The translations under genes and the position numbers were made by a program. DNA of 63,873 nt, filler included, from Rhizaria sp. SCN 62-66 (Eukaryota): NCBI GenBank assembly GCA_001724265.1. It is 3 parts of 3 records of this genome, joined end to end, with 100 filler letters (N's around TTAATTAATTAA, not from the genome) between each part and the next. Parts side by side here need not be neighbours in the genome. Positions count along the whole stretch, not along the records: positions 1 to 25,348 come from MEDY01000414.1; positions 25,449 to 51,091 come from MEDY01000415.1; positions 51,192 to 63,873 come from MEDY01000532.1. One strand, 5' to 3'. Every line of letters begins with the position of its first letter. Position 1 is the first letter of the stretch. Of the stretch, positions 18,649 through 63,501 are shown piece by piece. Under the pieces are notes generated by a model. That model did not search any database and was not told the origin of the DNA. It saw only the letters and a list, made by a program, of their open reading frames with translations.

Positions 18649-20573
18649 TCACTGGCGGCCCTGCATGAGCATCTGCAGCGCGGCGTTAGGGTCGCCGCTC
18701 GCGGCGGAGAGCGCCTGGAACGCGGTGTTCTCGTCCACGCCTGCGTGCTGGCTGAGCTGGCACACGAGCTGGACCTGCTCCGGACTCAGCTGCGTCGCCG
18801 CCGCCGTCGCCGCGGCGCCGTAGGCGAGCGCGGGCGGCGCCACGAGCCCGACGCCTGCGACGGCGCCGAAGGGCGGCGTGAGCGTGGCGGGCGCGTGCGT
18901 CGGCAGCACGTTGCCCTCGAACGGGACGGCCTTGGAGGTGATGAATAGCATGTCGTTGTGCGCGCGGACGACCTGGGCGCCACGCTAGTCGGCCGAGACC
19001 TGCAGCATGAACGTGCGGAAAAAGGTCCGGATGAGCCGGTTGGTGGTGTCTAGGAACTCGCCCGACACACGCACCGTGACCACGGGCGCCTCGGGGATCG
19101 GCACGGCGTCGATGGTGAAGGCGTCGATCTCGTGGTACGTGGTGGGCAGCTTGCCCAGCAGGTCACGGATTGCCGCCACGCCCGTGCGCGCGTTGTTGAT
19201 GTTCGGGGGCGAGATAAAGGGCTGCGCGACAATGTTGCGCGCGACGTTGGTATAGACGGCGAGCTTGTTGGCCTGGTTGACGCTGGCATCGCTGGCAAGC
19301 GAGATGGACAGGCTCGCGTCGGCCGCGTACAGCGTGAATAGACTCGGGTTGCGCGTGTCCAGATAGACGAAGAAGTTGCGCACGAACTCCTGCACCAGAT
19401 CGTCGACGTCGGGGCTGATGCACGACCCGGCGGGCTCGGGCACGCGCGCCGCCGCGGACGTCAGAACTGGCGGCAGCGCGAACTGCACCGACGGCACGAA
19501 CGCCTGAGCGGGGAGCAAAAGATAGGAACAAAAAAAAAAGGAAAAGCAAGTTTAGGACACACAAATTGAGTATGTTTCGAGTGGGGGTGCCAATCCAAAT
19601 AATAATATGTTGTCAGGAACAAATATAAATGATGTGTGCGAACACGTGTTCTTCGATTGACAAGGAGCCGTACCTGTCCGTTGAGCACGGTAAGCGAGGG
19701 AAACGACTGCGACATAAAATAGGAGAAAATGCGAAAGTCCATGCGCGTCAGCACGGGGTTCCCGGTCAAATCAAGGACCTCCATCGTGTCGCGGAAGTTG
19801 GACAGCCCCGAGAATGAGTCGATATCGTTGACCTGGTTGTTGGTCAGCGAGAGCCCCTTGACCTGGCTCGTGGCCTGCGTGAGCGGCTTAAGCACGCGCA
19901 GATCGCTGATCTGGTTGTCGCTCAGATCGATGAGGTTGACGTCGGGGCAATTGTTGCCGATGATGTTGCAGAGCGCGCGGACGAAGCCCTGGTTGTTGAA
20001 GTTCGTGTTGGGGTACGACGCGCGCAGCGAGGCCAGGTTGAGGAACTTTTGGTTCGTGTCGTACTTGCTGCCGATGACAGCGTAGAGCTCGGCCTCGAGC
20101 TTCGACGTTGCCTGTCCGCTGTTGTTGGCGCGGTGCAGTACGGCCTGCACGCCGCCGCGGACGTCGCGGTTGATGCTGTCGACGAGCTTGCTCGCGACCT
20201 TGGCGTCGACCTCGATCGTCGCAGTGCCTACGCCGGGCTGAAAGTTGTTCTTCATGATGCTCAAGTTGGGGGACTTCTTGCGGAGGAAAGCGGCGAAGTC
20301 GCGGAACTGCCATTGAGGGTTGAAGTTGGAGCACACGATCGTGGTGGTGGCCGAGTTGTTGTTCTTGAGCTGTGGACCGCGGCCGCCGCGGTTGTTGTTG
20401 TTGTTGTTGTTGTTGTTATTGTTATTGTTGTAGTTAGCATTGTTGTTATTGTTATTGTTGTAGTTGTTGTTGTTATTGTTGTTGAAGTTAGCATTGTTGT
20501 TGTTCGTGTTGCTGCTGTAGCGATTCCCGCCACCCGAGAAGCGATTGCCGCCACCACCGCCGCGATAGGACAT
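18649..20573 (-). CDS. NXF1: Nuclear mRNA export factor NXF1/TAP/Mex67 (RGG/N-rich N-terminus, RRM-like, LRR, NTF2-like, UBA-like C-terminus); exons 20573-19674 and 19503-18649; in-frame TAG at 18987-18985
   Basis: KYDTNQKFLNLASLR followed by LRRs (IDLSDNQISDL, LSLTNNQVNDI, LDLTGNPV). NTF2-like region includes LVQEFVRNFFVYLD, LGKLPTTYHEIDAFTID and RTFFRTFML...HNDMLFI. C-terminal QVQLVCQLSQHAGVDENTAFQALSAASGDPNAALQML resembles TAP-C/UBA. Intron GTACGG...CTCAG. Confidence 0.9.
20390..20505 (-). repeat. (AAC/AAT)n trinucleotide tract encoding poly-Asn in the NXF1 N-terminus
   Basis: Run of gtt/att triplets on the + strand. Confidence 0.85.
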
Positions 20574-21212
20574 CAAGGAAAGACTTGAAACGCAAAGAGC
20601 GTAAACCTGTTAGTACCAAAGTATTGCGGCTGCTAGCTTAGCAATGTATGATCGCGAGTGCGAGAGGGTTGGGCTGAAAATGGCGAGAAAATGGTGGGGA
20701 GATAGGTGAGGAATCGTGGGTCAAGACGTGCTTAGCGCGAATGCAGATAATGGCACCATAGCAACACATCGACAGATTTAATAGACATCTAGTAGAGATA
20801 ACCCATATATGTACGCGATATGAACGCGACATCGCTATAGTACGACGATTAGAGTGCATACCATTGGGGCAAAGTTGCGTCTCAATAAAACCTGCACCGC
20901 GCTGCCTTCGAACATTTTTTTCGGTCCGCGCTGGAGCCACCACAAATCGGTTTTGGCCAATCGAATCATTTTGCACTCGACCACGGTGACTCAAAGCAAG
21001 CATATCTTCATCGTTAAACTGTGCAATGTGGCAGAGCTCTTTTGCTGGAATATTATCGAGTGTCTAGAGTGTGGAATTATTATTGATACACGAATAGATG
21101 CATGTTTGCTGCAAATGTATTCACTTAAAGATTGCATCGGACTCTCAGATAACGTGCTTGTTTTGCTCACTCATATATTATCATATCAACTGGCTCCTCG
21201 TCTAGCCTAGCT

Positions 21213-24200
21213 ATGTCCCACGCTGTCCACAGCTCGTCAGCTACCCGCATTGATCATGATACTATTGGCGAAGTCGCTGTCCCTGCGAACGCGCTTTGGA
21301 GCGCACAGGTCCGTCCATATCCCACCAGATCTAATCTCAATCTCATCTCACCATCCCACCTCTCACCACGACTCTGACTCACGGAAACACAACTCACATT
21401 GGTACCTCGCTCACTCTTCAACTTGCAGACGCAACGGTCCCTCGACAATTTCAAGATCGGCGGCGTCGCCGAGAACATGCCGCTGCCTCTGATCCACTCG
21501 CTCGCCCTCATCAAGGCCGCTGCCGCGCGCGCAAACTACCCCGCGGGCGACGCCGTGGGCTCGGTCATCGAGAAGGCCGCGCTTGAGGTGGCCGCCGGGC
21601 TCCATGACGCGCATTTCCCGCTCAAGATCTGGCAGACTGGCAGCGGCACGCAGACCAACATGAACGGTTCGTCTCATCTCTTTATCTTTTACAAAGCTCT
21701 CTCGATATCACCATCACGAACGACATGATCTCACACGTATGCACTATAAATGATTGTAATGTGATTTCCTTGTTTGGCTTAGTTAACGAGGTGATTGCGA
21801 ACCGTGCGAACCAGCTGCTGGGCCTGCCTTTGGGCCAGTGGAGCAAGGTGCATCCCAACGACCACGTCAACAAGAGCCAGAGCTCCAACGACACCTTCCC
21901 CACCGGTACGCGCCACAATCAACTTGAATAGGACCAGAATGTGTGGGAACTAAGAAAACATTGGTGCGATGTACTATACTTACAATCTGACGTAGCTAGA
22001 GCTCTTTCAGGCTTATCCCTATCTTGTGTGTGTTGTGAACTTTTCTTGTCTCTCTTTAGGGATGCACGTGTGCCTTGCCCTCGCGCTTCGCAACCAGCTC
22101 CTCCCGGCTCTTGCGCGCCTTCGTGCCGTTTTTACCACGCTTTCTGAGCGTCACAAGAATGTCATCAAGATTGGTACGCATCCTACTATCTCGAATCACT
22201 CCTTGTCTTGCGTGAACGGCCACTCCTACTCTCGACTTTTTATGCACGATTGGAGATAGATTTGAACATATTGGGTCTCCTGCTTATTAATGCTGCTGCT
22301 GTCGACTCGCACCTCTCATTTTTGGGTCTGTTATCTTTATCTCAATCACGATGTGTTTTATAACTTAGGCCGCACCCACTTGCAGGACGCCACGCCCCTG
22401 ACCGTCGGCCAGCAGTTCACCTCGTACGCGCACCAGCTTACGCTCTCACTGCGCCGCCTGTGTCCGTTGCTTGCCTGTCCCGAGCCCGTCGCTCTTCCGC
22501 TTAAGGCCGGTGACGGCGTCAACAAGGATGGCGACGATGACACCGTCCCCGCGCCCGCTTTCTCGGTCCCTCGCTACGCCCTCATGCCCGACCCCATCAA
22601 TGCCGGCGCTGACCTGGATAACACGGCCGCCTACAGCGCCAACGGTGGCGGCCAGGCACAGTGGCCCCCGCTACTGGCGCTGGCGCAGGGCGGCACCGCC
22701 GTCGGTACCGGGCTAAACACCGCAAAGGTACGCACATATTCGTGCATATTCTCCGCGAAATTGCTACAATTGTCAGGTCATGCCATCCGCACATGTATTA
22801 TTGATCAACCCGTGTTAATTATTGTTTTTGTTTTATTATGTGATTATACAGGGCTTTGACGTTGCCTTCTGCGACCAGCTCCGAGCCATCGTCAACCACC
22901 ACGACACTACCAACAACTCCAACGCCAACGCCGCCGCATCTGCTGATTGCGACTTCGTGCTGCCGTTCTACCCCGCGGAGAACAAGTTTGCCGCGCTGGC
23001 TTCGCACGACTGCATCGTCGAGCTGTCTGGGCTCGTCACGGCCGCGGCCACGGGCCTCCACAAAATCGCCAACGACCTCCGGTACGAACATTTGACTTAA
23101 ATTACATCCCACATATTGTTTTCAATTACAAGTTGTTGTCAGTACTGTATTATTTTTTAAATATGTACATGGTTTACTTTTCGAGTCGGCCAATTGATCT
23201 AATTTGATCTTGATGATATATCTTTGGTTTCGCAACAATCTTTTAGGTATCTCGCCTCCGGTCCCCGCGCCGGCCTCGGTGAGCTGACCCTGCCCGCCAA
23301 CGAGCCCGGCTCCAGCATCATGCCTGGCAAGGTTAACCCCACGCAATGTGAGGCGCTCACCATGGTGTGCACGCGCGTTGTGGGCAACAACGCGACGGTC
23401 GCGATGGCTGGGGCGTCGGGCCAGTTCGAGCTCAATGTGTACAAGCCGGTGATCGTGGCCACGACGCTGCAGTCGATCCAGCTTCTCGGTACGTCGCGAT
23501 ACAAACATGTGACGATAACAAAACAACATACTACGCCTTGGTGATGCTTTGTCTTGTCTTCTTCATTGATCTGTTTTGCTCTAAGATCCCTGTCAATGCT
23601 GACATGACTTTGTGCACCTCTGCTTTCTCATTGTTCTTTCCAGCTGATGCGACTGAGTCGTTTACCGACAACTGTGCTGTCGGCATTCAGGTCAACGAGG
23701 TTCGTCTCTTCTATCGCAGACTATCAACATCGAACTCCTGACAGCCACAATTTCAATCTACCTGCATAACTCCGACTTCAAGCTGCACCTTACTTATACT
23801 TATATCTCCTGAATTGCAACCTCAATATCCCTGACACTCATGATGCCCTTGTTGGCGCGCCCATCTTTCCCCTGTATTCCCCCGACCCCAGGACCGCATT
23901 GACTCCCTGATGCGCTCGTCCTTAATGCTCGTCACCGCCCTCAACCCGCGCATCGGCTATGAGAACGCCGCGCGCGTGGCCAAGCTCGCCTTCAAGGAGA
24001 ACTGCACCCTCCGCGAGGCTGCGGTCGACAAACTCCAGGTACGACGCACCAAAACACGCCATATGCTCGACATGAACAAGCGTGTCGCTCTGAACAAGCG
24101 GCGACGCTTCGGGCTCGAAACTCTTATTCCTTCTTATTGTATCCTTCATCGTTACCTAACTTCAATTCGTTCTTCTAAATATGACGTTCTGCGCTGTTTT

Positions 24201-24268
24201 CATAGCTTCTGAGCAATGACGAGTTTGACAAGTACGTTGACCCCCGTCAGATGCTCGGTCCCAAGTGA
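21213..24268 (+). CDS. FUM1: Class II fumarate hydratase (fumarase), 10 exons: 21213-21308, 21429-21666, 21783-21905, 22060-22173, 22369-22727, 22852-23081, 23247-23488, 23644-23699, 23892-24038, 24206-24268
   Basis: Spliced motifs [79 protein letters not shown], the signature [15 protein letters not shown], and [18 protein letters not shown]. All nine GT-AG introns keep frame. TGA stop. Confidence 0.95.
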
Positions 24269-25062: not shown

Positions 25063-25348
25063 TCAGTTGTTGGCGGGCATCTGGGGCGGGGTGTCGATGG
25101 CGACAGCCTGGAAGTTGGGCGGGATAACGGGCATGAACTTGGAGTCCTTGGGGCAGAGCGCCTCGACGCCGTCACGCACCACCGACGGCGGGTTCGCGAA
25201 CAGGTTGGGGATCCACGAGCAGACGGGCAGCGCGGGGCACGGCTTGACAATCTGGGGGCCCGAGGCGTCCATGTGCAGGCAGCCGTTCTTCTCCCAGTAG
25301 ATGAGCGCCTTGTCGGCGCGCAGCATCGACTCGAGAATCTCGACGCAA
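25063..25348 (-). CDS. 3' fragment of an unidentified Cys/Pro-containing protein, truncated by the gap
   Basis: Open frame from the gap (CVEILESMLRADKALIYWEKNGCLHMD...PQMPANN, TGA) with coding-type codon bias. Confidence 0.65.
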
Positions 25349-25448
25349 NNNNNNNNNNNNNNNNNNNNNNNNNNNNNNNNNNNNNNNNNNNNTTAATTAA
25401 TTAANNNNNNNNNNNNNNNNNNNNNNNNNNNNNNNNNNNNNNNNNNNN
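25349..25448. other. Artificial contig-joining linker (N44 TTAATTAATTAA N44)
   Basis: Exactly 100 nt, symmetrical, with a 12-mer that has stops in all six frames. An identical copy lies at 51092-51191. Confidence 0.97.
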
Positions 25449-25449
25449 G

Positions 25450-26411: not shown

Positions 26412-26447
<36 letters not shown>

Positions 26448-31653: not shown

Positions 31654-34600
31654 TCAACCGTTTATGCCCAGGGGCCCCGTCGCCGGCGCCGCCCCGCCGC
31701 CGGCGCCGGCCTCAGCGAGCGACGCAGTCCTGCCCGGCAGCGTGCGGATCCACGCCGCGACGTCGCCAATCTCGGGCGCGGCCGCGGGCTTGGGGCCCAG
31801 CGCGAAGGCGGCCGCGAGCGCCGCGGGCGAGCCGGCCTGCACTGCGGCGCGGCAGTGCGTGATCACCTCGGCCTTGGCGCCGCCGTAGCGCAGCCGCGAT
31901 GCCTTCTGGATCACCTCATTCAGCGACTTGAGCGCCGTCGTCAGCGCCGAGTGGGTCGCTGCGCGCTTCGTCGACTCGTCTGTGATGCGCATGCGCGTTA
32001 TAAGATAATGATCAGAGAGTGTTTTTGAGTCAAGATACGTTAACAATACGCATTCGTTCCATAAATAATATGTTAGTAGTTTCATTTTAAACATCATAAT
32101 CGCATTTGATCTACTACTACTTGCACAAGATCATCGCACAACGTACCCTGGAGTTGGTTGTTCGCGTCGTTGATCTGCTCGAACACGCGGCGCACCTCGG
32201 CAGGCCGCTGTAGCAGGCGCGCGTCCTCGGCCGCTACGTGCAGGTTCTTGATGTCCGCAACCACTTCAGCGCTGTCCGCGGTCATGCGCGCACTGTAAAG
32301 AAAGAACAATCAAACGCAAGTGAAGACAAAATACAAAGTGAGATGCATAAAGCACAAAACAAGTGGTTGAGTACAAAAACAAACTTATCAAGATCCAATA
32401 ACAGTTGTGAGTCGCATGTATGCATATGCGCGCGTACCGTGTCGCGGTAAGACCCTTGATCGTGGCCATGATGGCGCCGATCTTCTCCGTCTCCTGCGGG
32501 AAGGCGCAGGCGGCGTGAGTGGCGCCAAGCCCGAACCAGTCGCCGATGTCCTGCACGAGCTCGCCCGCGAACTCGGCGTCGTCGCACGCGATCGCGATCG
32601 TTTCGCGGCCCATCGCCACCACCACGGGCGTCTGGTTATGTAGCGAGTAGAGCGCAACGGCCACCACGGCCGCCGTCTCGCCTGTGACGCCGCCGCCGCC
32701 GCTGAGGTCGGCGAGCCGAAACGCGCGGTCCGTGGCGTCGACGGCGAGCGCGTTGGCGACCACGGTAGCGTCGTCCAGGTGGAAAGCCTGACGCACCCAC
32801 AGCAGCAGCCGGTTCGCGTGCTCGCCGCGCACGCGCAGCGCCACCAGCCCCGCGGGCAGCGCCATGGCGGGCGCGAAGGGCGCGGGGAAGTAGCGCGCGT
32901 ACCGCGGCAGCGTGCGCGGAACCTCGAAGACGTGGTCGCCGTCGGCGCCGCGCAGCCCGACGACGCAGCGCAGCGTCACGTCGGCGGCCACGTTGCGGTC
33001 TACGGGCACGGGCACAGACACCACGGGCACGGGCCGGTCGGGCACGATGAGACGCGTGTGGCCGTGGAACAAGGCCGTCGACGTGATGGCCAGCGCCTTG
33101 ATGATGGCGTTGTTGTTGACGCCCAGCCGCAGCTCCAGCCCACCTGCAGAGAGCTGCGGCACCAGCTCCAGCACCAGCTTCGTGTGCGGCGGGATCAGCG
33201 GCTGCGCAGCGTTGCCTTCGGCGTCGGTCCCCGCACCGCCCGCGCCGGCGGCGTCCGCGCGCACCGAGAGCTCCGTCGTCTCCGCGCCTTTGACCTTGCT
33301 CCCACTGTTGCTGTTGTTACCATTCGAGCCCGTGGCACTGATGGCGACCTCGATCTCGCGCAGCTCTCTGAGCAGGGCCAGCTTCTCGTCCAGCAGCAGG
33401 CGCAGCTCGCGGGCCCGCGCAGCGGCGGCGCCGGCGTCGACCTCGCCCTCACCCACGGCCGCCACAGTCGCCGCCCCGGCCGCCGCAGAGGACGCGTCCG
33501 CCAGCGTCAGCGCCGTCACCGCGCCCGCCGCGCTGCACACCATCACAGCCATTCCCGCGCAAGCGGCGCCGGCGGCAGCGCTCGGGGCAGCGGTCGCGGC
33601 AAGGGCTGCGGGCGCGGGTGCGAAGGGGCCTGCGACGGCGGCGACGACGGGCCCCTCAACGGTAGCCTGGCACAGCAGCATGCCCGTGCGCGTATCGCGC
33701 GCCTCGACGCGCCCGCAGTCCCACACCACGACCAGCGCGGCGGTGGCGGCGCCCGCCGCGGCGGGCAGCCCGGGCGCGGCGGGCGGCGGCGGCGGCAGCA
33801 CAAGCAGTGCGACCACGGAGTCCCGCGCGCGCACCGACCAGGCCTTGTCGCCCGCAGGCGTGTAGGCGCCCACGACGCCGCCCGCGAGCGCGAACGCGAA
33901 GCCCATCGCGCCCGTCGTGTTGGCCGCCGCGGCCGCCGCGGCCGCCGCCGCCGCGGAGGCCGACACCGGCGCGGTGGGCGAGCCTGTGGGCGAGGCGAGG
34001 CTGGGGAAGGGCAGCGGGACGAGGTGCGTCGGCACGTCGCTCTCGTGATGCTCGGCAACAATGTCGACGCCGCGGTACACGCGGATCGCGTAGTCGTCCG
34101 CGCCCACAAGCAGCTCGCACAGCGCCGAGGGGCTTTGAGCACCAACCGCGCCCACAGCGCCCGCCGCGCCCGTCGTCGCGCTCGATGCGGTGATGAGGGG
34201 CGCGAGCGCGGGCAGCGGGCGCGCGGCCATGCACGAGACCGTGTCGCCGCACACGGACCAGTAGGCCTCGGCGCCGTCGGGCGCCGCGTAGCCGTGCAGC
34301 GAGCAGTTGCCGCCCGCGATGGCGAGCGGCTCCGCGGGCTTGAGCAGCGGCGCGAAAGCGAGCCGCGTCGCGCCGTCGGGCAGTGGCGCCGTGTACAGCG
34401 TGCGGTTCGCCTCCACGTCAAACGCGTGCAAGTGCTCCGCGGAGCCGCACAGCAGGTAGTCGCGCGGGACCGCTGTCGCCACCGCCGCCGCAGCAGTCGC
34501 TGACGTGGAATTGTCTGTGGAGGCGGAGAGGTCGGGTAGCAGCGGGTCGCCAGCGGCGTCGAGCGCGGCCAGCGAGGCGGGCAGCGTGCCCACGGCAAGC

Positions 34601-34797
34601 GCGGTCACAGCCGCGGGCAGGTTGAGCCGGCGCGTGATGAGCGCGGGGTCTTGCGCCGAGGGCGTGTAGAGCACGAGCGAGGACGCCGAGGTGGCCACGG
34701 CGAGCACGGGCGTCACGCCGTCGAAGCAGCCCACAACGGCCATCTGCGGCAGCACGCGGTCGTTGAGCGCAAACTCAAAACTGCGGACGAGTTGCAT
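31654..34797 (-). CDS. BBS2: Bardet-Biedl syndrome 2 protein (BBSome core); exons 34797-32438, 32292-32147, 31979-31654
   Basis: N-terminus MAVVGCFDGVTPVLAVAT, then AIAGGNCSLHGY, YWSVCGDTV, ELLVGADDYAIRVY, HVFEVPRTLPRYARY, ACDDAEFAGELVQDI, AEDARLL and LKSLNEVIQKASRLRYG. Introns have GTACG donors. TGA stop. Confidence 0.93.
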
Positions 34798-35342
34798 GGT
34801 GGGCGAGTGGTGTGGTCAACAGCGGACAGCTGCTGCAGAATGATAGACAAAGTTCGGTACGAACCGTTGGCAGGAGGTTTAGATCTCTGCCAGGGCTATA
34901 AAAGCTCAGAACAGACACTAAACAATTCCAGTTAGATAGTTACTTGATGGTACCAAGAGAAATTGCCCTTTATAAAGCAGATGATTGACTGGAACGTGTA
35001 CGTTTGCATGAAAAGAGGACGAGATACGTTGTACAGTGCAAGGTGAGACTAGTTCAATTTTGAAGTGTTATCTAGCATGGCCGAGTCCGTTGTTTTCAAA
35101 TACACTCTATATACAAAATATAGTACAAAATGTCGTTTGATATATTGGAGTGACACTTTAAAATAAGATGATGACTTTGTATAGTGCGTGAATTCGTAAA
35201 CGGGCTCAGCCTCGTTTTTGCCCGAGCTTGTGGCCTGTTCGCTGTGGCCACACGGCCAAAAACAGTAACGGCCGCTATATATCATGATGCCAGACTCGGC
35301 TCAAATCGATTTTGCACTATGGTGTTATTAGACCCACACCGC

Positions 35343-36830
35343 TCACACAGCCGCAGCTTCAGCCTTCTGTGTCTTGGTTGTTTGTTGCATATCCTGCGCT
35401 GGTTGCGTCTGCTGCAGCTGCTTCTGCTGTTGCTGCTGCTGCCAGAGCGACATGGCGCGCGTTTCGCTCATCCCTGCCCCCTTGGGCGCGCGATCCTCGC
35501 GCATCACGCCCTGCGCCTCGATCAGCCCGCGCCGCACGGCCGCGGAGCCCTGCTGGCCCGCCCTCTCCGTCCTCTCCCCCGATTCGCCAGATTGTGCAGA
35601 GTTGCGGCTGCAGCGGGCCAGCGCGCGCGCGGCGGCCGCGTCGGCCTCGGCGTCGTCGCGCGCGCGCCAGTAGCGGTCCACGGCCGTGGCGTCGCGCCGC
35701 GGCGGCCGCGGGGCCGGCACGGGCGCCGCCTGCGCGCCCAGTGACGCCAGCGAAGCGGGCAGCGGCACTAAAGCCGCGGACTCGGCTGCCGCACCAGCTA
35801 CCGCAGACTCGGCCCCACTGCTCGACGAAGAGAGCGCGGCGGCGGCGGTCTCGGCGCCCGCGCCCGCGGCGCCCGCGCGCAGTCGCTCCTTGGCAACGGC
35901 GCGAAGCCCATGCCAGTGCTATGCGCGCGCGCGCTCGCGCTGGAATTGCGCCTCGAGCGCGGGCGACACGAAGCGGCCGGCGACGATGTCGACGGCGTAA
36001 GTCCGCGAGTAGTACTCCCCAGCGCGCGCGCACTGCGCCTCGCGCTCCCGCGCCACGCGAGCGTCGTTATCCACCCAGTACCGGTTCGATATCACGTCGA
36101 ACTCGCGCCCGTCGCGGCCCGCATGCGCGGCGGCAGCGTCAGTCGCAGGGTAAGCAACGGAGGCAGAGCCGGTCGTGACATTGCTGTTTTCTGAGGCGGT
36201 GCTGTGCTGCGAGCGCGAGGGCATCTTGTCAAAGAAAGCCCAGAACTGGTTCGCGTCGACCTGCGCTCTGGTGACGCGGCCGTCGCTGCCGACGGGGCTG
36301 TGCGTGTTTGCATTGCCGGCGCGGGCCGCCGAGAGCTGGTCCAGCGCCGTCGCGCGCGCCGCGGGGCCGCCCGCTGCCGCGTAGGGCCGGTAGTGCAGCG
36401 AGCCCACGCCCGTGGTCGCCAGCGCGGACGACGTCGCGCGTGCCGCCGGTCGCGCCGACTGCGACTGCAATGGCGTCGCAGAGCCGTCCGGCACGGCGGA
36501 CGGATCAGTGACGGTGGAAGCGGAGGCGAGCTTGTTCGAGACTATGTTGAACTCGCGCTTGCTGCTCACAGTTGCGGCACGGTTCTGCGCCGACGCGCGC
36601 GCGGCGTCGCGGGCGAGCGCCTCGGCGGCGGCCATGCTCTCCTCGCGTTCCGCGGCGCGGTAGCGGCCCAGCAGCGGGTTGAAACTGTTCGAGTCCAGCG
36701 GGTTCGGCTTGCACGACTGCGCGCGGTCGCCGGGCGCCAGCTGCGGGGGTGCGCGCTTCTCAGAGGTGTACGTCTTCATCCAGTCGCCCCAGCTTGTGGT
36801 CAAGGCAAGCTTGTTGTCGGAGGACGACAT
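35343..36830 (-). CDS. Uncharacterised ~495 aa protein with repeated FNP/FNI/FDV-type motifs (possible ciliary/microtubule-associated protein); in-frame TAG at 35921-35919
   Basis: ORF 36830-35919 and ORF 35768-35343 are in the same frame, separated only by one TAG (ERARA*HWHGLRAVAKERL) with unbroken GC-rich codon usage. Repeated motifs: SFNPLLGRY, REFNIVSNK, REFDVISNRY, AVDIVAGRF. Function is inferred only. Confidence 0.7.
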
Positions 36831-46568: not shown

Positions 46569-46601
<33 letters not shown>

Positions 46602-51091: not shown

Positions 51092-51191
51092 NNNNNNNNN
51101 NNNNNNNNNNNNNNNNNNNNNNNNNNNNNNNNNNNTTAATTAATTAANNNNNNNNNNNNNNNNNNNNNNNNNNNNNNNNNNNNNNNNNNNN
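51092..51191. other. Artificial contig-joining linker (N44 TTAATTAATTAA N44)
   Basis: Identical to 25349-25448. Confidence 0.97.
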
Positions 51192-51219
51192 CACCTCGCC
51201 TCGCCTCGCCTCGCCTCGC

Positions 51220-52736
51220 TCACCGCGCCGCCATGGCCCTGATCCTGCGCAGCGGCGCCACGAGCGCCGCGCCGGCGTTGGGCAGCATGAGGCCCAGCGG
51301 CATAACGCCCGCGAGCGCCTCGGCGACCGCGGTGACTGTATGCAGCAGCGACGGGTCCGACGACAGCGGGTTTACGCGCGGCGGCAGCGCCTCAGTCCCG
51401 GGCGCCTCAGGGGTGCGGGAGCCAGCGGTGTGACTTTGAGGGGACCCAGTGAGAGCAGAGGGCGTGTGGCTATGCTGCGAGTTGGAGCACGAGTGCGAGT
51501 GACCGTGGGCGCAGGAGTGACCGTGAGCACCATGCGTACCCAGCAGCTCTTGTTTCTCACTGTTGTCACTCTCAACACCAGCAGCATCATTGTTATTGCA
51601 ATCACCGTCATCGTTGTCATGCTTGCAGTCGCCGCATTCAGCAGTCCCGTTGTCCCTCACGCGGACACGGCCCTGACCACCACCACCAGCAGCAGCCTCG
51701 GTGCTGCTGACCGCCAGTCCCGGCCCTCGAGGCCCGCGGCTGCTGCGCGCGGCGACTACCACTTCCCAGCCCGCCTGCGCCTGCGTCAGGCCCAGCGCGG
51801 CCGCCAGCGCACGGACCAGGCACGGCGCCGCCGCGGCGAGCGGCAGCGGGGACAGCAGCAGCAGCAGCAGCGCCGCGTTGGTGCCACCGCCGCCGCCGAC
51901 GCCGGCTGCAGCGGCAGCGGCCGTGAAGAGGGAGTTGGTCGGCGAGAAGAGCAGGGGGGAGAGCAGCGCCGACAGCAACGAGAGGGCGAGGAGCGGGAGC
52001 GAGAGCAGCAGGTGCAGGGTGACGTTGTAAGGGGACCAAAGGGTGAAGGGCAGCAGGAGCACGACGGCAGTGGCCACGGGTGGCAAGAGGAACAGCAGAG
52101 TTGGCACCAAGGGGCTGCGAGACAAAGAAAGCACAAATAGGATGACGTATTTAGATAATTCGAGTATATCAATAAAATTTGTAGAAACAAATTGATACTA
52201 GAATTTTTACATATTACAATCAGCATTTTCACCAACTAATCACCATATATCTGTAGAAATGTGCAATTTAGTGTGTTTTCTCTGCTCGTTGCGTACCTTA
52301 TAAGCTCTTGCGTCGATGCTGCCACAGCCTCTGCGGGTGCCGTGCCAATCACAAACGGAACAAGCGCGGGCAGCCAGCTCTCCAAAAGCCCCTTGTTAGC
52401 CAGCGTGCGGTCTGTAGTTAGATAGGTCGTACTGTGCGCGAACAGCACGCGCGCGATGTCCACGAAGAGGAAGAGCAACGCGGCGGCGACGTGGGCGGTC
52501 AAAGAGGCCCAGTAGGGGGCGCCCGGGTGCGAGAGAGCAAGCGGAGTGCCAGCGCCGACATGGAAAGGGCGTTGGGGTAGGCCGTCCAGTTGCTGTTGTT
52601 GCTGTCCGTATTGTCCTTGATGTACAAGTGGTCGTGAGACACTATTGGAAGTTGACAACGATGAAGACGACGATGACGATGATGGGGTCGGTTGTTGCGG
52701 GCGTGAACGCACGCTGGGAGCAAGCTCAGTGTCCAT
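51220..52736 (-). CDS. Unidentified multi-pass membrane protein with a His-rich loop; exons 52736-52297 and 52114-~51220; 3' end possibly lost in the gap
   Basis: In-phase intron GTACGC(52296)...CGCAG(52115). Several Leu/Ala/Pro hydrophobic stretches and HGAHGHSCAHGHSHSC. The apparent TGA at 51222-51220 overlaps a possible GTGAG donor next to a (GAGGC)n repeat at the contig edge. Confidence 0.6.
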
Positions 52737-53137: not shown

Positions 53138-55529
53138 TTAGAAGCCCATGCTCAGCGCGACGACCGCGACAAGCGCGACAACAGCGCTGCTGACGGTGTA
53201 GAGCGCGGCGCCGTTGACCTTGGCGCACTTGCCGCTGACGCAGGAGCCGGACGAGCAGTCCGCGCCGGTCTCGCAACTGTAGTCGTTAGGGCAGCCGCCG
53301 CAGTCGCTGCCGCCGCAGTCGACGTCGGTCTCGTCGCCGTCCTTCTCTTCGTTGGCGCACGTGGCGGGCAGCGCGTCGTAGGTCGCGGCGGAAGGCACAG
53401 CGCGGATTCCGAGCGCCGCCGTGGCGTCCTTCTGCAGGCCCGTGCTGGGGGACGTAGAAGCCGTCTTGAGCAAGTCGAGCACGTCCTCGTACAGGGCCGT
53501 GCTGGGCACGGTGACCACGGTGACGACGGTGAGCTGTTGCGTGACCACGGGGTCCTCGCTGACGGAGCGCTTCTTCGAGGCCTTGTTGGCGACTGTGTCC
53601 GGGATGGGGCCCAAGCTCTGGCTGGAGACCTTGACGTACTTGGTGTTGACGCCCGCCGCGGCGGCGACGACGGCGGCGAGGGCGTCAACCTTGGTGAACG
53701 GCAGCAGCGCGTTGGTCGAAACAGTGAAAGTCTGCGTGATCGTCTCGATCGGGGCCTTGCCGGCGAAGATCTCGTTCACAGTCACCGCGGTGTTCTGGGC
53801 GAGCACGCCGAGGGTGGAAGTCTTGCTCTTGATCACGACGGAGGCGTCAGTCGCCTCGGCCGTCGCCGCAGTGGGCGTCTTGAAGCCGTTGCAGTGCACG
53901 TACAGGGGCCTGGATAGAAAACGATACATATAAAAACAATGATAGAAATGAGGTTATGATATTTTCGATAAAAATAAAGCTAGAATATAATATGGCAATA
54001 GATTCGTAATGGTGAGAAGAACATTTTCTTGACACTCAGTTTGTCAACGTACTTGGAAGCACTCGCAGCCGCGTCGTCCCCCAGAGTGACGGTCAGCACG
54101 ACGGGCTGCCCCGCCGTGTAGGTGGTCAACACACCGGTCGCCCTCATCGTCGACGCCACGGGGGACTTGACGCCGATCGAGAAGGCGCACTCGGGCGCGG
54201 CGGCGGGCTTGGTGCCGACCGCCCATTCCTTGGGCAGCGTGACAGTGATCACGTCTCCGCTGTAGAGCGCGACGGGCAGGGGGCGCAGGGCGAGGGTGAG
54301 CCATCCGGCGACGCTGCCCGCGGTCGCGGTCTGCGGGATCACGCGGGCCGCGGCGAGGCCCACGGTGGGGAGGCGTACGGGCCCGAAGGTGATGTTCGCG
54401 ACGGTGCCGCGGAGCGTGGTGGACTCGCCCTCGTAGAAGGCCGCCGAGCCACCGATGACGCCGTCGTGCGCCTTGGAAAGCGTGACGTTGTTGCAGTCGA
54501 TGTAGAAGCCCTCGGACATCTTGGCGATGGTCTCGTACGCGATGAGCGTAAGCTCGGTGCCCGCTGTGATGCCGACGGCGTCGTAGGGCGCGCCCGCGGT
54601 CACGCAGGGACTGTATTCGGGGTGGATGACGTAGCCGGGGTTGAGCTGCGCGGCCGTGGGCAGCGAGAGGATGACCTTGTCGCCCATGTAGACGGGGAAG
54701 TTGAGGGTCGGGAACATGAAGCGCACGGAACCGGACTCGTACTGGTTGGTGACAGAGCCGATGGTCGTCATCGTGGCGTCCGTGAGCTTGCGCGAAGTGA
54801 CGGCGGGCAGCTCAAAGTTCTCGGTGACAACCTTGGCGCCGGCGTCCGTCACGGCGATGGTGGCGGTGGACTTGGCCGTCACGGCGTGCGCCGTGTTGAA
54901 GTTCTTGCATACGATGGTGAGGGCGCCAGTGACAGTGTACGTCATGGGAATGTTGTACTTGTTCACGTCAACGTTGGGCTTGAGGATAGGGATGTCGGCG
55001 CCGCTGTTGACGTTGCAGGGCGCCATGTAGTCGATGGTGAACGTCGTGGGCAGAGTGAGCTCGATCACGGCGTCCGTGGTCAGGGCCTTGGAGTTGGCGG
55101 TCGAGATCGTGATCGTGGTGCTCGAGAACACCTCGCTCACAGGGGGGTCGTACGATGCAGTAGAAGCCTGGGCATGTCATTGTATGCGGGCAATTGTAGG
55201 AGAAACGAGATTGCATTAGTGGTGACGTATATAGGACGTTTAGGAGAAGAAAAATAATTGAGGTTTTCGAGTGAGAGTTGCACTGGTTAACACGAGCTTG
55301 GGAGTGATAGATAGATAACTAGAGTAAAGCCAGAGACGCATATGGCATAGTATGTAAAGTTCTAATTCGCGGACACAGTTTAAGCTTTGGTTGTCTCTGG
55401 TGAAGCAAGAAAGACGCCACAAATTTGAGCGCTTCGTCAAGAGCTTTGAGAACGTACAGCGTTGGCACCTGTGGCGAGGCACAGGGCAGCGACGGCAAGG
55501 AAACCGAGGAAAGTACCCAGGAACCTCAT
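53138..55529 (-). CDS. Secreted, probably GPI-anchored surface protein with Thr-rich beta-sandwich-like repeats and a Cys-rich ETDVDCGG module; exons 55529-55458, 55167-54053, 53909-53138
   Basis: Signal peptide MRFLGTFLGFLAVAALCLATGANA. Three related units (IELTLPTTF / VILSLPTAA / ITVTLPKEW, ending IVCKNF / IDCNNV / VHCNGF). CANEEKDGDETDVDCGGSDCGGC module. Hydrophobic C-terminus NGAALYTVSSAVVALVAVVALSMGF. Both introns have GTACGT donors. TAA stop. Confidence 0.82.
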
Positions 55530-56025: not shown

Positions 56026-58152
56026 TTAGAGCATCGCGAGCACACTCTTGTCAAACATCTTGCTCACCTTGCCCACCGTCACCCCGCCGGGCCCCGCCAG
56101 TTCCACGGGCAGCCTGCGCACGCACGCCTGCGTCTCCTCCTCGGCACCCGTGGCGGTCTGATTTACGTCCTCGTCCTCGCCGGCACCGGCACCCGCCGTC
56201 GCCTCCGCACTCGCGCCAGCGGCAGTGGCGGCGCGCGGCGCGGCGTTGCGCCCCCAGACGCGGACGACCTCGCCGCCCTCGCCCGCGACGGACCGTGAGA
56301 CAACGAGCGCGAAGATGGCGTCGTAGCCGCCCGCGCCGGGCACGCCCGAAAGGACTACACCCGGCACGGCCTCGGTGGCGTCGAGCAGGCGCGTCTGCGA
56401 GGTCGGCTCCACGGGCACGCCCGCCGCGTCGCCGATGCTGCGCAGGCCCGCGCGGACGAGCGCGAACCGCGACGCCAGCGTGTGCATCGCGCGCACCGTC
56501 GCGGCGGCCACTCCGCCGTCGCCGCTTGCCTCAGCAGAGCCAGCCGCAGTCGCAACCGCGAGAGTATCCCAGTCGCGCCAGGTGTGCTTCGCGCACAGCG
56601 CGAGGCCAGCGTCGTACCCCGCGCCGTCACGGTCGTACAGCGCGATGAGCTCGGCGATGGCGCGCTCGACGGCCGCGTTGCGATGCGCCTGCGCCTGCCA
56701 CTCGGCCTCGGCGCCGGGGGCCGTGGCGCGCCAGTGCAGGATCGACTTGACCATCGAGGGCGTCTCGGAGCCGCCCTGGAGACAAGTCAAACGAATGACA
56801 GGACAAAAACATTGGGGAGAAAAATATCAGTTTGGATTGGAACATATGTTATTATCGATTTGCGATTGAGAATAACATGCATGAGCGAAAATTTTCGTCG
56901 CAAAAAGTCAAGATTTAATAAAGTTATCTCCCAAGTTTATCCTGTTCTGCGGTGTTAAAAACGTACCTGGACGTCGCCCAGCAGAAGCTGCAGCCCCGGG
57001 GGCAGCACAAAGGGCGCGGCCGTGTCGTCCCAGCCCGCCTGCTGCGCGTCGTCGCTGCCGCCGCCGGACTGCTTCAGCATCGCCACCAGCGCGGCGGCGG
57101 GGATAGGGGCTGTGGCGGACAGGAAAGGCGCGATCACGCGTGGGGAGAAGCGCGTGTAGATATGGGTACCGAAAAAAGCGGCCGCAACGTCGAAGCCGCT
57201 GCCGACCTTGCCCTGGGCGGCGCAGTGGGCGAACTGTGCGAGGCTGCGAGTGCCGAATCATGACAACACATAGTGGCGTGAGATGTTACGAGTAAGTTAC
57301 AATAGTCAGTGATATGTCACAATACCAGGCTAAATGTCACAGATATATAATATTGTAATGAAATATATCTCAATAAAGATGTCCTGTTAACTACTTGTGT
57401 TGATAGTGTTAAATACGCTGCTTAGTTCTGTTGACATACCGGTACGCAAGGAGACGGTCGGGTGAAGAGGGCGCGCTGACGTCGAAGCCGAAGTGCGCAA
57501 AGAGCGCCGCAACAAGCGAGCACACAACCGCGGCGCTGCTGCCGAGGCCCGTCTTGGTGGTGTAGTCTGCAGGGTCGTCGTTATCGAGCGGGAGAACGGC
57601 GTTCGCGCTATCAGAGCTAGCAGCAGAGCACGCCTTGTTGTCGTTGCTGGCGTCTCTGCCACTGCTGCCGCTCTTGGTGCTCTGCGAGGCAATCGGAAGA
57701 GACGAGTAAAACGAGCGGTCGCCGCGCACGTGCACGACAAGCCCGCCCGCGAGCTTGGCGACGAACTTGTCGGCGCCCAGCTCGTGCTGCACGGCCGACA
57801 GCACGTGCTGCAGCGTGGTGACGACGAACGAGTTGGCCGCGAGGTCACCCGAGAGCGCCAGGCCCGACGCGTTGCCCGGCGCGGGGTACGTAACGGCCAT
57901 CGAGAGGGGCGCGTGGCAGCGCTGCGGGGTGAAGACGACGATGGGATAGGTGACGGAGCCATCGGAGTCTGTGTTGTTGCTGGTGAGAGAAGAGACAGGG
58001 AGAGGGAAAACGCTCGAGTGGAGCTGTGCGTTAACGCTGAGAACAATGCCGGTGTTCGGGCGCTCCAGAACAAGGTAGCCACCGGTCACAAGAACCTTTG
58101 CGCCCGCGGAGGCGACGGAGCCCTCGAGCACCACGGTTTCGGGGCACGACAT
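56026..58152 (-). CDS. ERG8: Phosphomevalonate kinase, ERG8 (plant/fungal GHMP) type; exons 58152-57440, 57243-56967, 56775-56026
   Basis: ASAGAKVLVTGGYLVLE, KTGLGSSAAVVCSLV, LAQFAHCAAQGKVGSGFDVAAA, GDVQGGSETPSMV, AAGVPVEPTSQTRLLDA and GVPGAGGYDAIF. TAA stop. Confidence 0.93.
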
Positions 58153-58488
58153 CGAGCTATACAGTTGGGAAAAGACGCATAAATAGGGGTAAAGATCACC
58201 AGTTAGACTACCAATTTGCTCAAATATGTAAAAATATTCATTGTGATTGTTTTATTAACGATATTGCTATTGACGGTGTTTTTGTCGCGCTGGTCATGGT
58301 TTTATCAAGCGCTCACGTCGCTTCTCTCGTCTTCCCTCTTGCCCTCCCCACTTCCATCTCTTTCTTCGCAGGCAGACTGCCGATAAAGCTAACTAGAACA
58401 ATCGCTCGCGGATATTGATTTTTGGCGTAGTAGTCCTTCTGCGGTTTGATTTGAGTTAGATCTACGTCGATCCTTGGCGCCAGCGCTC

Positions 58489-59855
58489 ATGTCCGGCGTT
58501 CCTTCAGCTTTGGCCACAAGCCCAGGTCAAGCTACTCCGGCTGTCCCTAGCGCTGCGCCACAGCTCAGCGGCAGCGACGACGGGTTTTTAGACGACGTCA
58601 CATGGGGGTTTGATGATGCCAGCGCGAGCTCATTATAGTCTAGTGCGCTCTTGAGCCAGGGTGCTGGCTCCACTGCAGCCACTGAAACAGCCTCTGCTCC
58701 GCCGGCTGATACTGTTGTTGCTGCTGCTGCGCCTGCTGCTGCTAGCGCCGCTGCGAACGATTATGACGACGATGACCACTGTGTGGACTACAATATAGGG
58801 CGCAATTACAACAACTTCGTCCCGAAAAGCATTGCGCGTAACAGCACCAGCTCCTTCTCTAACAGCCATAACATTGCCGCCAAAAGTCACGCTACGTATC
58901 TTCACCACAGCGACAACGTAAACAGCGGTACGCGGAGTGACGTCAACGCTGATATCAACCCCACCGCAAACAACGACAGCGCCGGTGTTGGCGACGAGAA
59001 TGACGACGTGTACTTGCCCGACAGTGACAGTGAAGCGGTCACAGCGCCGCCGCTCCCGAACCGCTCTGCCGCGAGCTCTGCTGCACACAGTGTCAATCAC
59101 GCGGGGGCTCCTCACAGTCACCCGAATGGTACTCACGGACGCGCTAGTCTCAGTCGCAGTGCGCACGGCAACTCGGTGCCCCCGATTGTGTTCCCAGTAG
59201 CCCACAGCTACGGTCATGGTCACAGTCATGGTTCGATGAATAACAATTCAAACACAACTCACGCACGTCATGCCAACAGTACTCGTACTGCGTCTGCTGC
59301 TGCTGAAGCGTTTGTGCCTTCGCTGGCAGCAGGCCCGCCCGCCCCCTACGCCTCTGTGTTCTCGGAACTCGAGCATCAGCAACAGCAGCTCAAGCTACAA
59401 CAGCAGCAACAACAACAGCAACAACAAGCGCATCACGGTCACGGGCACTCTCACGGTCCCGGCCGAAACTGCGCCCACGACCATAGTAACCCGAATGACA
59501 ACAATGGAAGCAGCAGCAGCGGCAGCCGCGGCAGCAGCAGCAGCACAGCTGGCAGTAGCACTCCAAGTGCGTCTCGCTCTCCAGCGAACGCGCGTAGCTC
59601 TCGCGGCAACGCGAGTGCGAACGGCGCGGCGGCAAGCGCGCGGACTCGCAGGGCCAATAGGGCTCCGCCGGACGCCGTGACTCCGCTGCACACGCAGTCG
59701 GGCTCGGTGCTGCTGTTCGGCGCCTTCTCCGCCGCCGCCGCCTCGGCCTCCGCAGCCGCCGCCGCACGCCGACGCCGACGCCGTGACCGTGCAGGCAGCA
59801 ACGGCGACGGCGACGGCAACGGTAGCGGTAGCGGTAGCGACAGCGCTACACGCAC

Positions 59856-59888
<33 letters not shown>

Positions 59889-62515
59889 ATATAGCCGCCG
59901 TAGTGTTGGCGGCGACAGCGCGGGCGTCGAGGACGACGGCGAGCTGGGCTGCCGCGCGCTCGAGCTCACTGTCGCCAGCAGGGACGTGGTGCTGTGGGCC
60001 GCGCGCGCGCTGGACCCGGACGAGGTGACCGTGAGCAGCGGACAGGGCTCCGGGGCGCGGGTGCGACTCATCAACCCGAACAGGACCGCTGCTCACGGTC
60101 GCGGTCGCGGGCGCAGCAATATGGCTGCTCACGGCCACTCGGAAGATGATGACAATGATGAGAACGGTGGCAATGACAGTGACAGCGAAAGCGGGGAGGA
60201 TGTGTGCGAGTATTACCGCGAATACTTCGAAGAATTCTCAGACGACACGGATAATACTGACAACCGTGATCTTAACAATGTTTCGCATAATCGTTCTCTG
60301 ACTGTGTCTACACTCCTTGTTCACGTCAAATCGTGGCTGTGTCTGTTGCTTGGCCTGCCAGCCACCCTTGCCGCGCCCACAGCAAGCCTGTTTTGGTCTG
60401 GTGGCAGCAGCAACAGCAACAGCAACAACAGTAGCAGCATCAGTCGTATGCTGCCGCCCGCGGGTGCCGTGCGCGGGAGCGCGACCGCAACCATCACTGT
60501 TCCGTCGCACTCAAGCGCACGTACATCCTCCGCGAAGAGTGACAGGGGCCAGAAAGTGCGCACGGTCACTACTGTCCCGGTTGCGCTGCTCACAGTCCCG
60601 CCTTTGCCGCGCCCGGCCGCGCTGTCGCTGCGGAACACGCGGCCCTTCTTCCTCCTTCTCGCGCTGGCGCTTACCGTGCCCGTGTTCGCGCTGCTGCTCG
60701 CCCACTTCGCCGTCGCGCCGCTGCTGTACTGCGAGACGCTGCCGGGCTTCTGGTACGGCTACAACAGCCGCTACAGCCTCACCATCGACGCGCTGCGGCC
60801 GCTGTCGCACCAGTGGCCCCGGTCGGGTCTCGCCGCGCTGCTCCTCGCGCTGGGGCTCCCGCCGCGGCCGCTGTGCCGCCCCGCGGCGCTGTACGCGGCG
60901 CCGCTGCTGCTCGCCGCCGCCGCCGCCGCCGCCGCGCTGCTCGCGCCGGCGCTGCTCGCGCGCGCGCTCGCCGTGGACAACACCGCCGCGGCGCACCTGC
61001 AGAGGCACCAGCAGCCGTACAGCAGCGTCTCTGCTGCGGGGGCCGCCTCTTCAGCACGCCAGCAGCTGCAACAGCAACAACAAATGTCGATTAAAGATGA
61101 CTCTGCTTGCAGTCAAAGTGAAAACTCCGCATTTTTGTTCTTTTCTGAGCCCGGTGTTGTGAAAGTCACTGTTTTGGCGCGGCGTATGCTGCGCCTTCTG
61201 CAGCCAGCGCTGACAGCCCGCTTCACGCAGTCTGTTAATCAACAGTCTCGCGATCAGCGTCACAGCGGTGGTGCGGTGGGCAACATGAGTCGCAACAGCA
61301 GCGGTGCTGATGGGGACCCCGCAGCTACTGCAGCTGTTACAACGTTCAGTCACTCTTCAGGATCGGGACGACGTCGTGTAGCAACAGCGGCACCAGCAAC
61401 GGCTACAGGCGTTGGTCTCGTGCGGCTGCCGCAGTCACGCTGGGTTGTGCCTGTCACCGTCATCGCGCCTGCAGTGCCAGCGCTGTCTAAAGGGGTGCTT
61501 ACGCGCTACTCGCAACACAACAATGACAACAAGGGAGCAGCTGCCCAAAGATCTAAGGGGGCACTTACCCGTCGCCCCAGCTTGTTCCTGCCCCCGGCCC
61601 CGCTCGCGCTGTCGCTGGCGCTGGCGCTGTCAGCACTGCCGCTGCCGCTGCCGCAGGGCCTTGCGTCCCCGCTGACTCAGGCCCTCACCACGGTCGTAAC
61701 GCCGTCGCTCTTCCCCCTGCTGCTGCCGCTCGCGCTGCTCTGCATCCTGTACCAGCCCGCGCTCGCCAAGCTGCCGTTGCCGCTCGCGTTCCCGCTGCTG
61801 CTGTGTCTGCTTTCGCTGCCCGCGGCCGCCGCCCAGGCCGCCGCCGCGCTGGCCGCTGCGCCGCACGCCGCCGTCGCGGCCACGGCGCCGCGTTTGCGTC
61901 CGCGCGCCGCCGCGCTCGCGCAGCTGCTATTCCTGGTCGCCATCCCACTGCTCGCGCACGACGCCGTCAACGGGGACGTCGCGGCCATCTTCTCGCTGCT
62001 GCTGCTCGCGGCCGCGGTTTGCGGCTCCATCGCCGTCGTCGGCACGGCGGGCGCCGGCAGCTGGGCCCACGCCGGCGACGCCGCGACCAGGGCCGTGGCG
62101 GTCGCCATAGCTGTGGACAGGGACGTCGCCAGGCAAGCTAGGGCGAAGGGGGAACTCTTTAGACAGGATCAGAAACAGTTTGTTTCTACACAAGTGTCTC
62201 AGGAGAGCGTGTATGTCCCGAACTTACCGTATGTTATCCAGAACAAGAGTATTGCGCGTAACGCTGCTCTCGCTCAACACGAGGATAAGGAAGATGAAGA
62301 CGAGAGTGTTGGCGTTGCTTTGTGGAGTCACCGCATCAATACGACACTCCCGGACTCTGAGTCCGACAACAGTGACAGTCCTGGTGTGAGCGAGATTGAC
62401 GAGTCAGTTCTTGCGCCGTGGTCAATTGCCTTGGCTCTTGGTCCCCGTACGTCTCTCTTACTCTGTGTTAAGTGGCTATTTGCACCACTTCTTAGCACTC
62501 GCGCAACAGCAACAT

Positions 62516-62547
<32 letters not shown>

Positions 62548-63501
62548 ATAACAATGACATCAGGACAAGTTGACGCTTGGCGACTAAACTTCCTGCTATC
62601 CCTGCTGCTCACAGTCATCTCACTGCTCACAGTCATGCTCAACGGCCTGGCCACCCCGTCCGCCGTGGCGACTGCAGTGTGCCTCACTGTCACACTGTAC
62701 TGTGAGCTGGTCGTGCGCGCCGCTCTCGCAGCGGCAGCGGGCGGGCAGGTGGCGTTCGCGCTCCAGACGGCGCTGTTGGCCACGATCAACAACACACTCA
62801 GCCACACCACTGTCACTGTTTCTCAGCCTGATGGCGACGTCAATGCCACTCCGCGTTACAGCGCTGACGCAATGACATCCCGTCAGCGTCGCCGCTTACT
62901 GCGCTCGCTTGTGCTTGTCCTCCCGTCCGGTGCCCGCATCTCTGCCGCCACCGTTGCCGACGAGTCGCCGCTCTCGTTTGCCTCCCGCTGCCGACTGCTC
63001 CTCACCTCGCCAGCACCAACAGCTTCCGCAACAGCAGTAGCCGCAGCAACATATGTGCCCGTCGCCCCGCTGCCCCCCACGGGGGCGTCGCCCTCGCGCC
63101 CCTGTCTGCTGTGGGCGCTGCTCCTGCTCCTGCTCGCCCTCGGCACCGCGGCCACGGGCGCGGACGGCGAGGGCAGCCTGCTGCTGGCGCTGACCGCCGC
63201 GGGAGCGGTGGCGGCGGTGGTGCGTGTGTGCTCAGAGTGGGGGGGGCTCGGACTTGGACTGAGTCTTTGTAGTCGCAACCGTGGCGGTGGCAGTGACAGC
63301 GCAGGATGTGGCGTTGACGTCAGGAGTATCTGGCTTTTCGATGACTCTGCGAATACCAGCAGTCAAAACATCGATAGCGAGAACGACAGCGACAGCGACA
63401 GTGACTCTGACAGCTACAGTGACAGTTATAGCGGCAGCGAGAGTGGGTCTGAGACTGAGCGCAGCGATGAAAGTGACAGTGATGAACACACTCATCCATA
63501 A
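58489..63501 (+). CDS. Large (~1670 aa) unidentified multi-pass membrane protein with a disordered His/Gln/Asp-rich N-terminus; in-frame TAG at 58636-58638
   Basis: ATG 58489 (MSGVPSALATSPGQ...DDASASSL*SSALLSQGAG) is in frame with the 58651-63501 ORF. Many Leu/Ala-rich hydrophobic segments from ~60300 onward and an acidic SD tail. TAA stop. Without readthrough, the first in-frame ATG is ~750 nt further downstream. Confidence 0.7.

Follow-up and report, generated by a model that had tools for sequence, protein, structure and literature searches.

Does the organism whose DNA is deposited as Rhizaria sp. SCN 62-66 (assembly GCA_001724265.1) translate the codon UAG? The question is raised by the stretch analysed here (hereafter the window: 63,873 bases from three contigs, with N spacers at 25349-25448 and 51092-51191), in which each of three genes contains one in-frame TAG. 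A preliminary description of this DNA had proposed that UAG is a sense codon used at very low frequency, while UAA and UGA remain stops. From the sequence, we consider it probable that UAG is indeed read as an amino acid and not as a terminator, and that UAA and UGA are the stops, the sites concerned being only three. This reading draws on (i) TAGs that are real at two of the sites; (ii) conserved sequence that continues downstream of them; and (iii) the absence of TAG from all 18 gene ends that could be defined. To this extent the proposal stands; with three sites in 64 kb it is unproven.

The three TAGs and the genes that contain them, with lengths referring to the open reading frame (ORF) read through the TAG, are as follows.

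18987-18985, minus strand: in-frame TAG no. 1, codon 144 of the exon translation 19416-18652
18649-19416, minus strand: last exon of an NXF1/TAP-like gene, with an NTF2-like domain and a TAP-C-like tail; stop TGA 18651-18649
19461-20609, minus strand: upstream exon region of the same NXF1-like gene, with an LRR domain (Pfam LRR_NXF1-5, E 5.6e-10)
35921-35919, minus strand: in-frame TAG no. 2, codon 304 of 495
35343-36830, minus strand: site 2 gene, 495-codon ORF 36830-35346; stop TGA 35345-35343
58636-58638, plus strand: probable in-frame TAG no. 3, codon 50 after the ATG at 58489
58489-63501, plus strand: site 3 gene, predicted 1,669-codon low-complexity protein; stop TAA 63499-63501

Each of the three TAGs is indeed there and in frame, as had been described; those of sites 1 and 2 lie inside conserved coding sequence, that of site 3 probably inside coding sequence. 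At site 1, the Pfam NXF_NTF2 match (E 3.9e-22, model positions 1-157 of 158) runs across the TAG, as does the phmmer alignment with human TAP (chain 1jkg_B, query residues 4-163), in which the TAG faces an Asn of the human protein in the loop preceding the last beta-strand. Downstream of the TAG come the region of this last strand and then a tail whose 'LSPEQ...' match to TAP-C is weak in the TAP alignment and below significance in Pfam. The order of parts is that of NXF1/TAP/Mex67 proteins (LRR, NTF2-like, C-terminal TAP-C/UBA-like tail), and coding log-odds per codon are 0.68 upstream and 0.59 downstream of the TAG in the same frame, the other two frames being negative. Were translation to stop at this TAG, the NTF2-like fold would be left incomplete at its end and the C-terminal tail would be missing entirely. 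A search for NXF1 relatives, limited to proteins of 140-447 amino acids (aa), returned solely the window's own shortened product.

The gene at site 2, which has no Pfam match, is by sequence a member of a family from ciliated eukaryotes. When 1.84 billion representatives were searched exhaustively with HMMER, 15 relatives were obtained, two of which derive from the window itself, being parts of its product from either side of the TAG (P0128, residues 1-303, and P0129, residues 355-495). P0130, an ortholog of 483 aa (45% identity, range 41-46%), is open in one frame throughout and is colinear with the whole site 2 gene to the C terminus; downstream of the TAG the two proteins have in common the blocks WHGLR, AVDRxWRARD..ARAL.RC, IEAQGV and SLW, and the H/G just 3' of the TAG is kept in more distant homologs as well. 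Coding log-odds at this site are 0.39 upstream and 0.19 downstream of the TAG. A second protein-homolog search recovered only the cut product of the window itself, its 8000 scored candidates being swamped by low-complexity matches and P0130 being missed; the ESM Atlas, queried with P0130, gave no usable and no named match; and a search of metagenome contigs with the site 2 alignment found one locus (L001) of the same organism and no new sequence. An SWG motif near the N terminus and R-E/D-F-D/N-x-x-S/T-N-R/K-Y units that occur repeatedly are features of the family (the window gene and P0130-P0142).

An assembly error had been named at the outset as one way in which the TAGs might prove spurious. 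Comparison with other assemblies covers sites 1 and 2, and at both the TAG recurs in independent assemblies. A different study contributes a contig of 1,927 bases that matches 18494-20375 without a single difference, and no variants at 18985-18987 are listed in any of four runs, a missing entry not being proof of coverage in the other three. In public collections the site 1 product occurs only as proteins of 177 or 170 aa that end at the TAG (3 cluster members, 8 contigs), the site 2 product is the 303-aa P0128 (7 contigs), which ends exactly at the TAG, and the Joint Genome Institute (JGI) locus L001 carries the site 2 TAG. Given the independent contig, the 8 and 7 database contigs and L001, the TAGs of sites 1 and 2 are real and are not assembly errors.

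At site 3, the next in-frame ATG lies 200 codons 3' of the TAG, leaving 199 ATG-free codons that have coding log-odds of 0.30 (-0.39 and -0.51 in the other frames); among 5000 shuffles, this stretch remains open in only 5. With 199 coding-like codons free of ATG, the translation start must lie upstream of the TAG, which we accordingly grade as a probable in-frame coding codon.

Gene ends provide the third line of evidence. Nine of the 18 ends that could be defined are TAA, nine are TGA and none is TAG, one of the 18 (ORF 51220-52197) belonging to an uncertain gene. The preliminary description had listed 19 ends (10 TAA, 9 TGA); its zero for TAG is retained, and its total is corrected. Off-frame stop triplets in the training genes, counted over the other five frames (TAA 140, TAG 262, TGA 675), set the expectation for TAG at 24%, under which the probability of finding none among 18 ends is 0.007. 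The 14,178 codons of 24 coding segments contain three internal TAGs and no TAA or TGA. Since the segments were selected as open frames, the lack of TAA and TGA is in part a product of that choice; an independent scan likewise found no TAA or TGA in the frame of a real gene with coding signal on both sides, its few weak positives being antisense to known genes. The TAG-bearing genes contain no frameshift or other lesion.

Several observations weigh against the translation of UAG. The absence of TAG from 18 ends has a probability of 0.054 or 0.15 if the TAG share is taken as 15% or 10%. CAG, GAG, AAG, TCG and TAC abound among the codons in use, and a random nonsense mutation in these genes would yield TAG 67-69% of the time; because of this bias, the restriction of the interruptions to TAG, to which the preliminary description had lent weight and which is true of three out of three, proves little (probability about 0.3 if the genes are pseudogenes). 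UAG is not widely used as an ordinary sense codon: it accounts for 3 of 14,178 codons in 3 of 18 genes (about 0.02%, or 1 in 5,000; TAG:CAG = 3:639, TAG:GAG = 3:404), a usage orders of magnitude below that of every published UAG-reassigned nucleus, as far as the available portions of the sources extend (PMC5304391, PMC11687900). No consistent residue faces the TAGs, the counterpart being the loop Asn at site 1 and a mixed polar column at site 2. The search for a decoding tRNA that had been suggested, carried out in the window with ARAGORN and Rfam, found no tRNA gene. No listed RNA-library piece spans the TAG at 18985-18987, NXF1 coverage being thin (bin depth 0.9). Finally, the 49 codons 5' of the site 3 TAG do not score clearly as coding (log-odds -0.03), and no homolog of the site 3 protein was found.

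The mutational bias toward TAG is what would be expected if the TAGs were nonsense alleles, in recently inactivated genes or redundant copies, and if chance together with a preference for TAA and TGA had kept TAG from the 18 ends; each gene carries a single lesion, and at a TAG share of 10% the lack of TAG ends is unremarkable. However, this would make 3 of 18 genes dead in a compact 64 kb that otherwise contains no frameshift, TAA or TGA. Moreover, identical TAGs at sites 1 and 2 are found in assemblies from several studies and years, codon bias is undiminished 3' of the TAGs, and conservation at the level of orthologs is kept 3' of sites 1 and 2. TAGs that are fixed across samples, together with the codon bias and conservation kept beyond them, make three single-lesion pseudogenes decidedly unlikely.

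A second alternative departs from translation as the rule only in degree: UAG may still be a stop, but a leaky or ambiguous one, subject to context-dependent or partial near-cognate suppression, so that these genes need readthrough and UAG is avoided at gene ends. The very low usage of UAG would suit such a scheme, as would the base that follows it. This base is G at 12, T at 4 and C at 2 of the 18 gene ends, and C, C and T after the internal TAGs (hypergeometric P about 0.06), a pyrimidine at position +4 being a weak termination context. However, the sites have no downstream motif in common, and the 120 nt 3' of each TAG fold no better than shuffled sequences (z 0.05, 2.10 and -0.04), with no sign of an element of the pyrrolysine or selenocysteine type. 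Termination inside the NTF2-like domain would deprive an mRNA export factor of its TAP-C tail, so that readthrough of low efficiency looks costly, and readthrough alone leaves the missing TAG terminators unexplained. We regard a leaky stop as unlikely.

The missing terminators are equally unexplained if a sense codon is restored in the mRNA by editing, for example by A-to-I conversion that turns UAG into UGG, a process known from filamentous ascomycetes during their sexual stage. According to the parts of the sources available, fungal A-to-I editing favours sites that lie in hairpin loops and have U at position -1, UAG being a frequent target (PMC11156358, PMC5496914), and the site 3 TAG does fall in a small hairpin loop in two of three fold windows. 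Sites 1 and 2, by contrast, have no consistent loop placement across fold windows, and Trp would be odd in the polar column of site 2. Furthermore, the editing system is known from one fungal group only and nothing in the window is fungal, the best named matches of its alanyl-tRNA synthetase (AlaRS) being protists. Editing thus appears very improbable.

There remains the question of whether the gene models themselves are at fault, the TAGs lying in unrecognised introns or, at site 3, in a 5' leader. Introns certainly exist here, one of them with the 3' end ...TCTAG, the site 3 TAG comes after 'tcattatag', a string that resembles an acceptor, and coding signal is lacking in the 49 codons before it. 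However, at sites 1 and 2 the alignments with homologs include the residues that flank the TAG, so that nothing is spliced out there. The four introns whose donor was read start with GTACG, and the five measured have a G+C content of 28-53%, whereas the interval from ATG to TAG at site 3 has one of 59% and the plus strand from 57886 to 58928 contains no GTACG donor, which makes an intron at site 3 unlikely. As a general explanation for the three TAGs, a gene-model artefact seems highly improbable.

If UAG is translated, which amino acid does it specify? The preliminary description had held that the residue cannot be fixed from three sites, and we agree: only site 2 has several homologs, and its column is mixed and polar (E3, S2, N2, R2, T1, K1 and Q1 in 12 homologs). 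It had also held that Gln and Leu both fit, from which we differ as regards Leu. Glu faces the TAG in P0130, the nearest ortholog, and none of the 12 residues is hydrophobic, so that Leu fits poorly; site 2 would favour a polar residue (Glu or Gln) over Leu. The codons one step from TAG are GAG, CAG, AAG, TTG, TCG, TGG and TAY.

Under the reading that we prefer, an uncultured, GC-rich flagellated eukaryote with short AT-rich introns would translate UAG as an amino acid and terminate at UAA and UGA. UAG would be decoded by a tRNA with anticodon CUA or by a very efficient near-cognate reader, and eRF1 would no longer recognise UAG well. The codon would have been purged from gene ends and would so far have re-appeared at about 0.02% of codons. 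Codon capture is a model for such reassignments, and the combination of UAG-free gene ends with very low usage fits a reassignment that is recent or weakly tolerated. A bolder version, which we put forward only tentatively and think rather doubtful, is that codon capture is still at an early point here, in the GC-rich nucleus of a deep-branching lineage, with UAG removed from all ends and just re-entering genes, and that UAG may encode Glu alone. We know of no published nuclear code in which UAG alone specifies Glu while UAA and UGA are stops.

Should UAG prove to be sense, a genome of about 61% G+C in which UAG is off the gene ends and TAA ends half of the genes would offer a rare view of a reassignment that is early or weakly tolerated, and models of codon capture and of an ambiguous intermediate would become directly testable. 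Published nuclear stop-to-sense cases, in the portions of the literature available, use the new sense codon abundantly and so show only the end state. There would also be a practical consequence: as public gene calls cut the proteins at the TAG (P0121, P0128), annotation with the standard code would be wrong for a fraction of the genes of this lineage.

To which lineage the organism belongs can be approached through the AlaRS gene. Its fragment has environmental relatives at 51-80% identity, with which it forms a clade of nine (SH-like approximate likelihood ratio test, SH-aLRT, 100) on a long branch, separate from every named sequence. In a quick AlaRS tree this clade contains no named member and lies outside Rhizaria, alveolates, stramenopiles, ancyromonads and Provora. 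Among named sequences, the best matches reach only 43-48% identity (Lapot gusevi, Colponema vietnamica (GILI01), several ciliates, Platysulcus, Fabomonas and Ancoracysta); the best named match, Lapot gusevi, is at 46%, and nothing points to a close relationship with a named rhizarian. With named matches at this level the lineage cannot be named, and one gene is insufficient to place it. By this evidence the organism is not close to any sampled taxon, the known UAG-reassigned ones included. The clade of environmental sequences indicates that relatives of the organism exist in public metagenomes. No match came from genome contigs when these were searched with the dynein light chain or with an alignment of the AlaRS clade, nor from viral contigs searched with AlaRS. 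Contigs of up to 220,695 and 76,195 bases that bear the genes of sites 1 and 2 are available in public assemblies. DNA nearly identical to that of the window is present in metagenome runs of the bioreactor or wastewater type from several studies between 2015 and 2025.

The window has a G+C content of about 61%, which rises to about 0.8-0.95 at third codon positions (GC3) of the coding regions. Its genes include those for a cyclophilin-RRM protein, NXF1, a lyase, TMEM144, BBS2, an axonemal dynein light chain, AlaRS, an ankyrin protein and an NBR1-like protein, which is, as judged from the sequence, a gene set typical of a flagellated eukaryote. Coding regions are broken by short AT-rich spliceosomal introns, about 140-155 nt long in the four that are fully delimited. 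The 5' splice site is very uniform, with GTACG(C/T) at every donor read (four of these donors are at 13040, 40766, 21906 and 54052). The introns and the two further genes whose limits are used here are listed below.

13040-13183: intron, 144 nt, GTACGT...CAG
40628-40766: intron
21906-22059: intron
22174 onward: intron
about 53909-54052: intron
32266-34815, minus strand: BBS2 gene
38795-41902, minus strand: AlaRS gene

Introns decided several gene ends. The long ORFs 9385-13071 and 13117-18183 on the plus strand share a frame and are joined through the intron 13040-13183, so that they form a single predicted gene (9385-18183, plus strand, about 2,880 codons, with an N-terminal B-box), and the TGA at 13069-13071 is intronic. 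The ORF 31654-32130 on the minus strand matches the BBS2 hairpin domain PF23353 (E 1.9e-4) and hence appears to be an additional, last exon of BBS2, whose end is then not the TGA at 32266. These two TGAs, each followed by an intron, were rejected as gene ends, as were the TAGs at 21929-21931 and 53980-53982, where the ORFs run into introns of the GTACG type. Contigs from poly(A) metatranscriptome run X5 and from run X6 can be placed on contig 1, and those of X6 include a spliced joint from 23080 to 23246.

Two further stretches of contig 1 deserve mention. At its end, 25063-25347 (minus strand) holds the C-terminal fragment of an apparently very conserved gene without a Pfam match; other runs contain many variants of it, which fall at third codon positions with spacings that are multiples of three and presumably stem from related organisms. 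The stretch 6154-9384 (3.2 kb, about 47-52% G+C) contains no ORF of at least 150 aa, a contig from a poly(A) library maps within it at 8722-9015, and it may be an intron-rich or non-coding gene.

How does this organism compare with those in which UAG is known to have changed its meaning? The published cases are given here from partial texts of the papers cited. The preliminary description had named a sainouroid rhizarian and the fornicate Iotanema as the known cases in which UAG alone is reassigned; both are confirmed, and the list is out of date, phyllopharyngean ciliates belonging to it as well (PMC11687900). In the rhizarian exLh (Sainouroidea), nuclear UAG specifies Leu: 71 genes contain 384 in-frame UAGs, which fall at conserved Leu positions, and termination is by UAA or UGA alone (56 and 15 genuine stops, respectively; PMC5304391). 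The window resembles it in that UAG would be sense, UAA and UGA the stops, and the change recognised by in-frame UAGs in conserved genes; it differs in that UAG is so scarce and that the site 2 column is polar. In Iotanema spirale (Fornicata), nuclear UAG specifies Gln and is abundant (PMC5304391). As in Iotanema, UAG alone would be reassigned here, uncoupled from UAA, and Gln is a candidate (CAG to TAG is one transition); unlike in this fornicate, UAG is scarce, and genes of the BBSome and of axonemal dynein are present.

Among phyllopharyngean ciliates, reassignment of UAG alone has been described once to Leu (three TARA metagenome-assembled genomes) and twice to Gln (Hartmannula and Trochilia), with UAG in 78-91% of genes and making up 6.5-31.8% of the synonymous set, and with UAA as 92-98% of stops (PMC11687900). 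A metagenome-derived genome and a sense UAG are common to these cases and ours. In contrast, UAG is found here in only 3 of 18 genes, TAA and TGA end nine genes each, the G+C content is about 61%, and AlaRS falls outside the ciliate clade. In a further ciliate code, UAA and UAG specify different amino acids (PMC10553269). UAA is thus sense there as well, whereas it ends 9 of 18 genes here. What the two would have in common is a UAG uncoupled from UAA and, possibly, its meaning: UAG reportedly specifies Glu in that ciliate code, and Glu is the residue of the nearest ortholog at site 2.

The ascomycetes with stop-loss editing likewise have genomic in-frame UAGs in genes whose full-length protein is still made, but UAG remains a normal stop there and editing is stage-specific (PMC11156358, PMC5496914). 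Reassignment in trypanosomatids has been tied to GC-poor genomes (PMC12153298), in contrast to the composition seen here. A literature search that did not extend to supplementary files returned no report of a GC-rich wastewater protist with a sense UAG. Reassignment of UAG alone is a kind of code change that is already established, of which the organism of the window is probably a new case.

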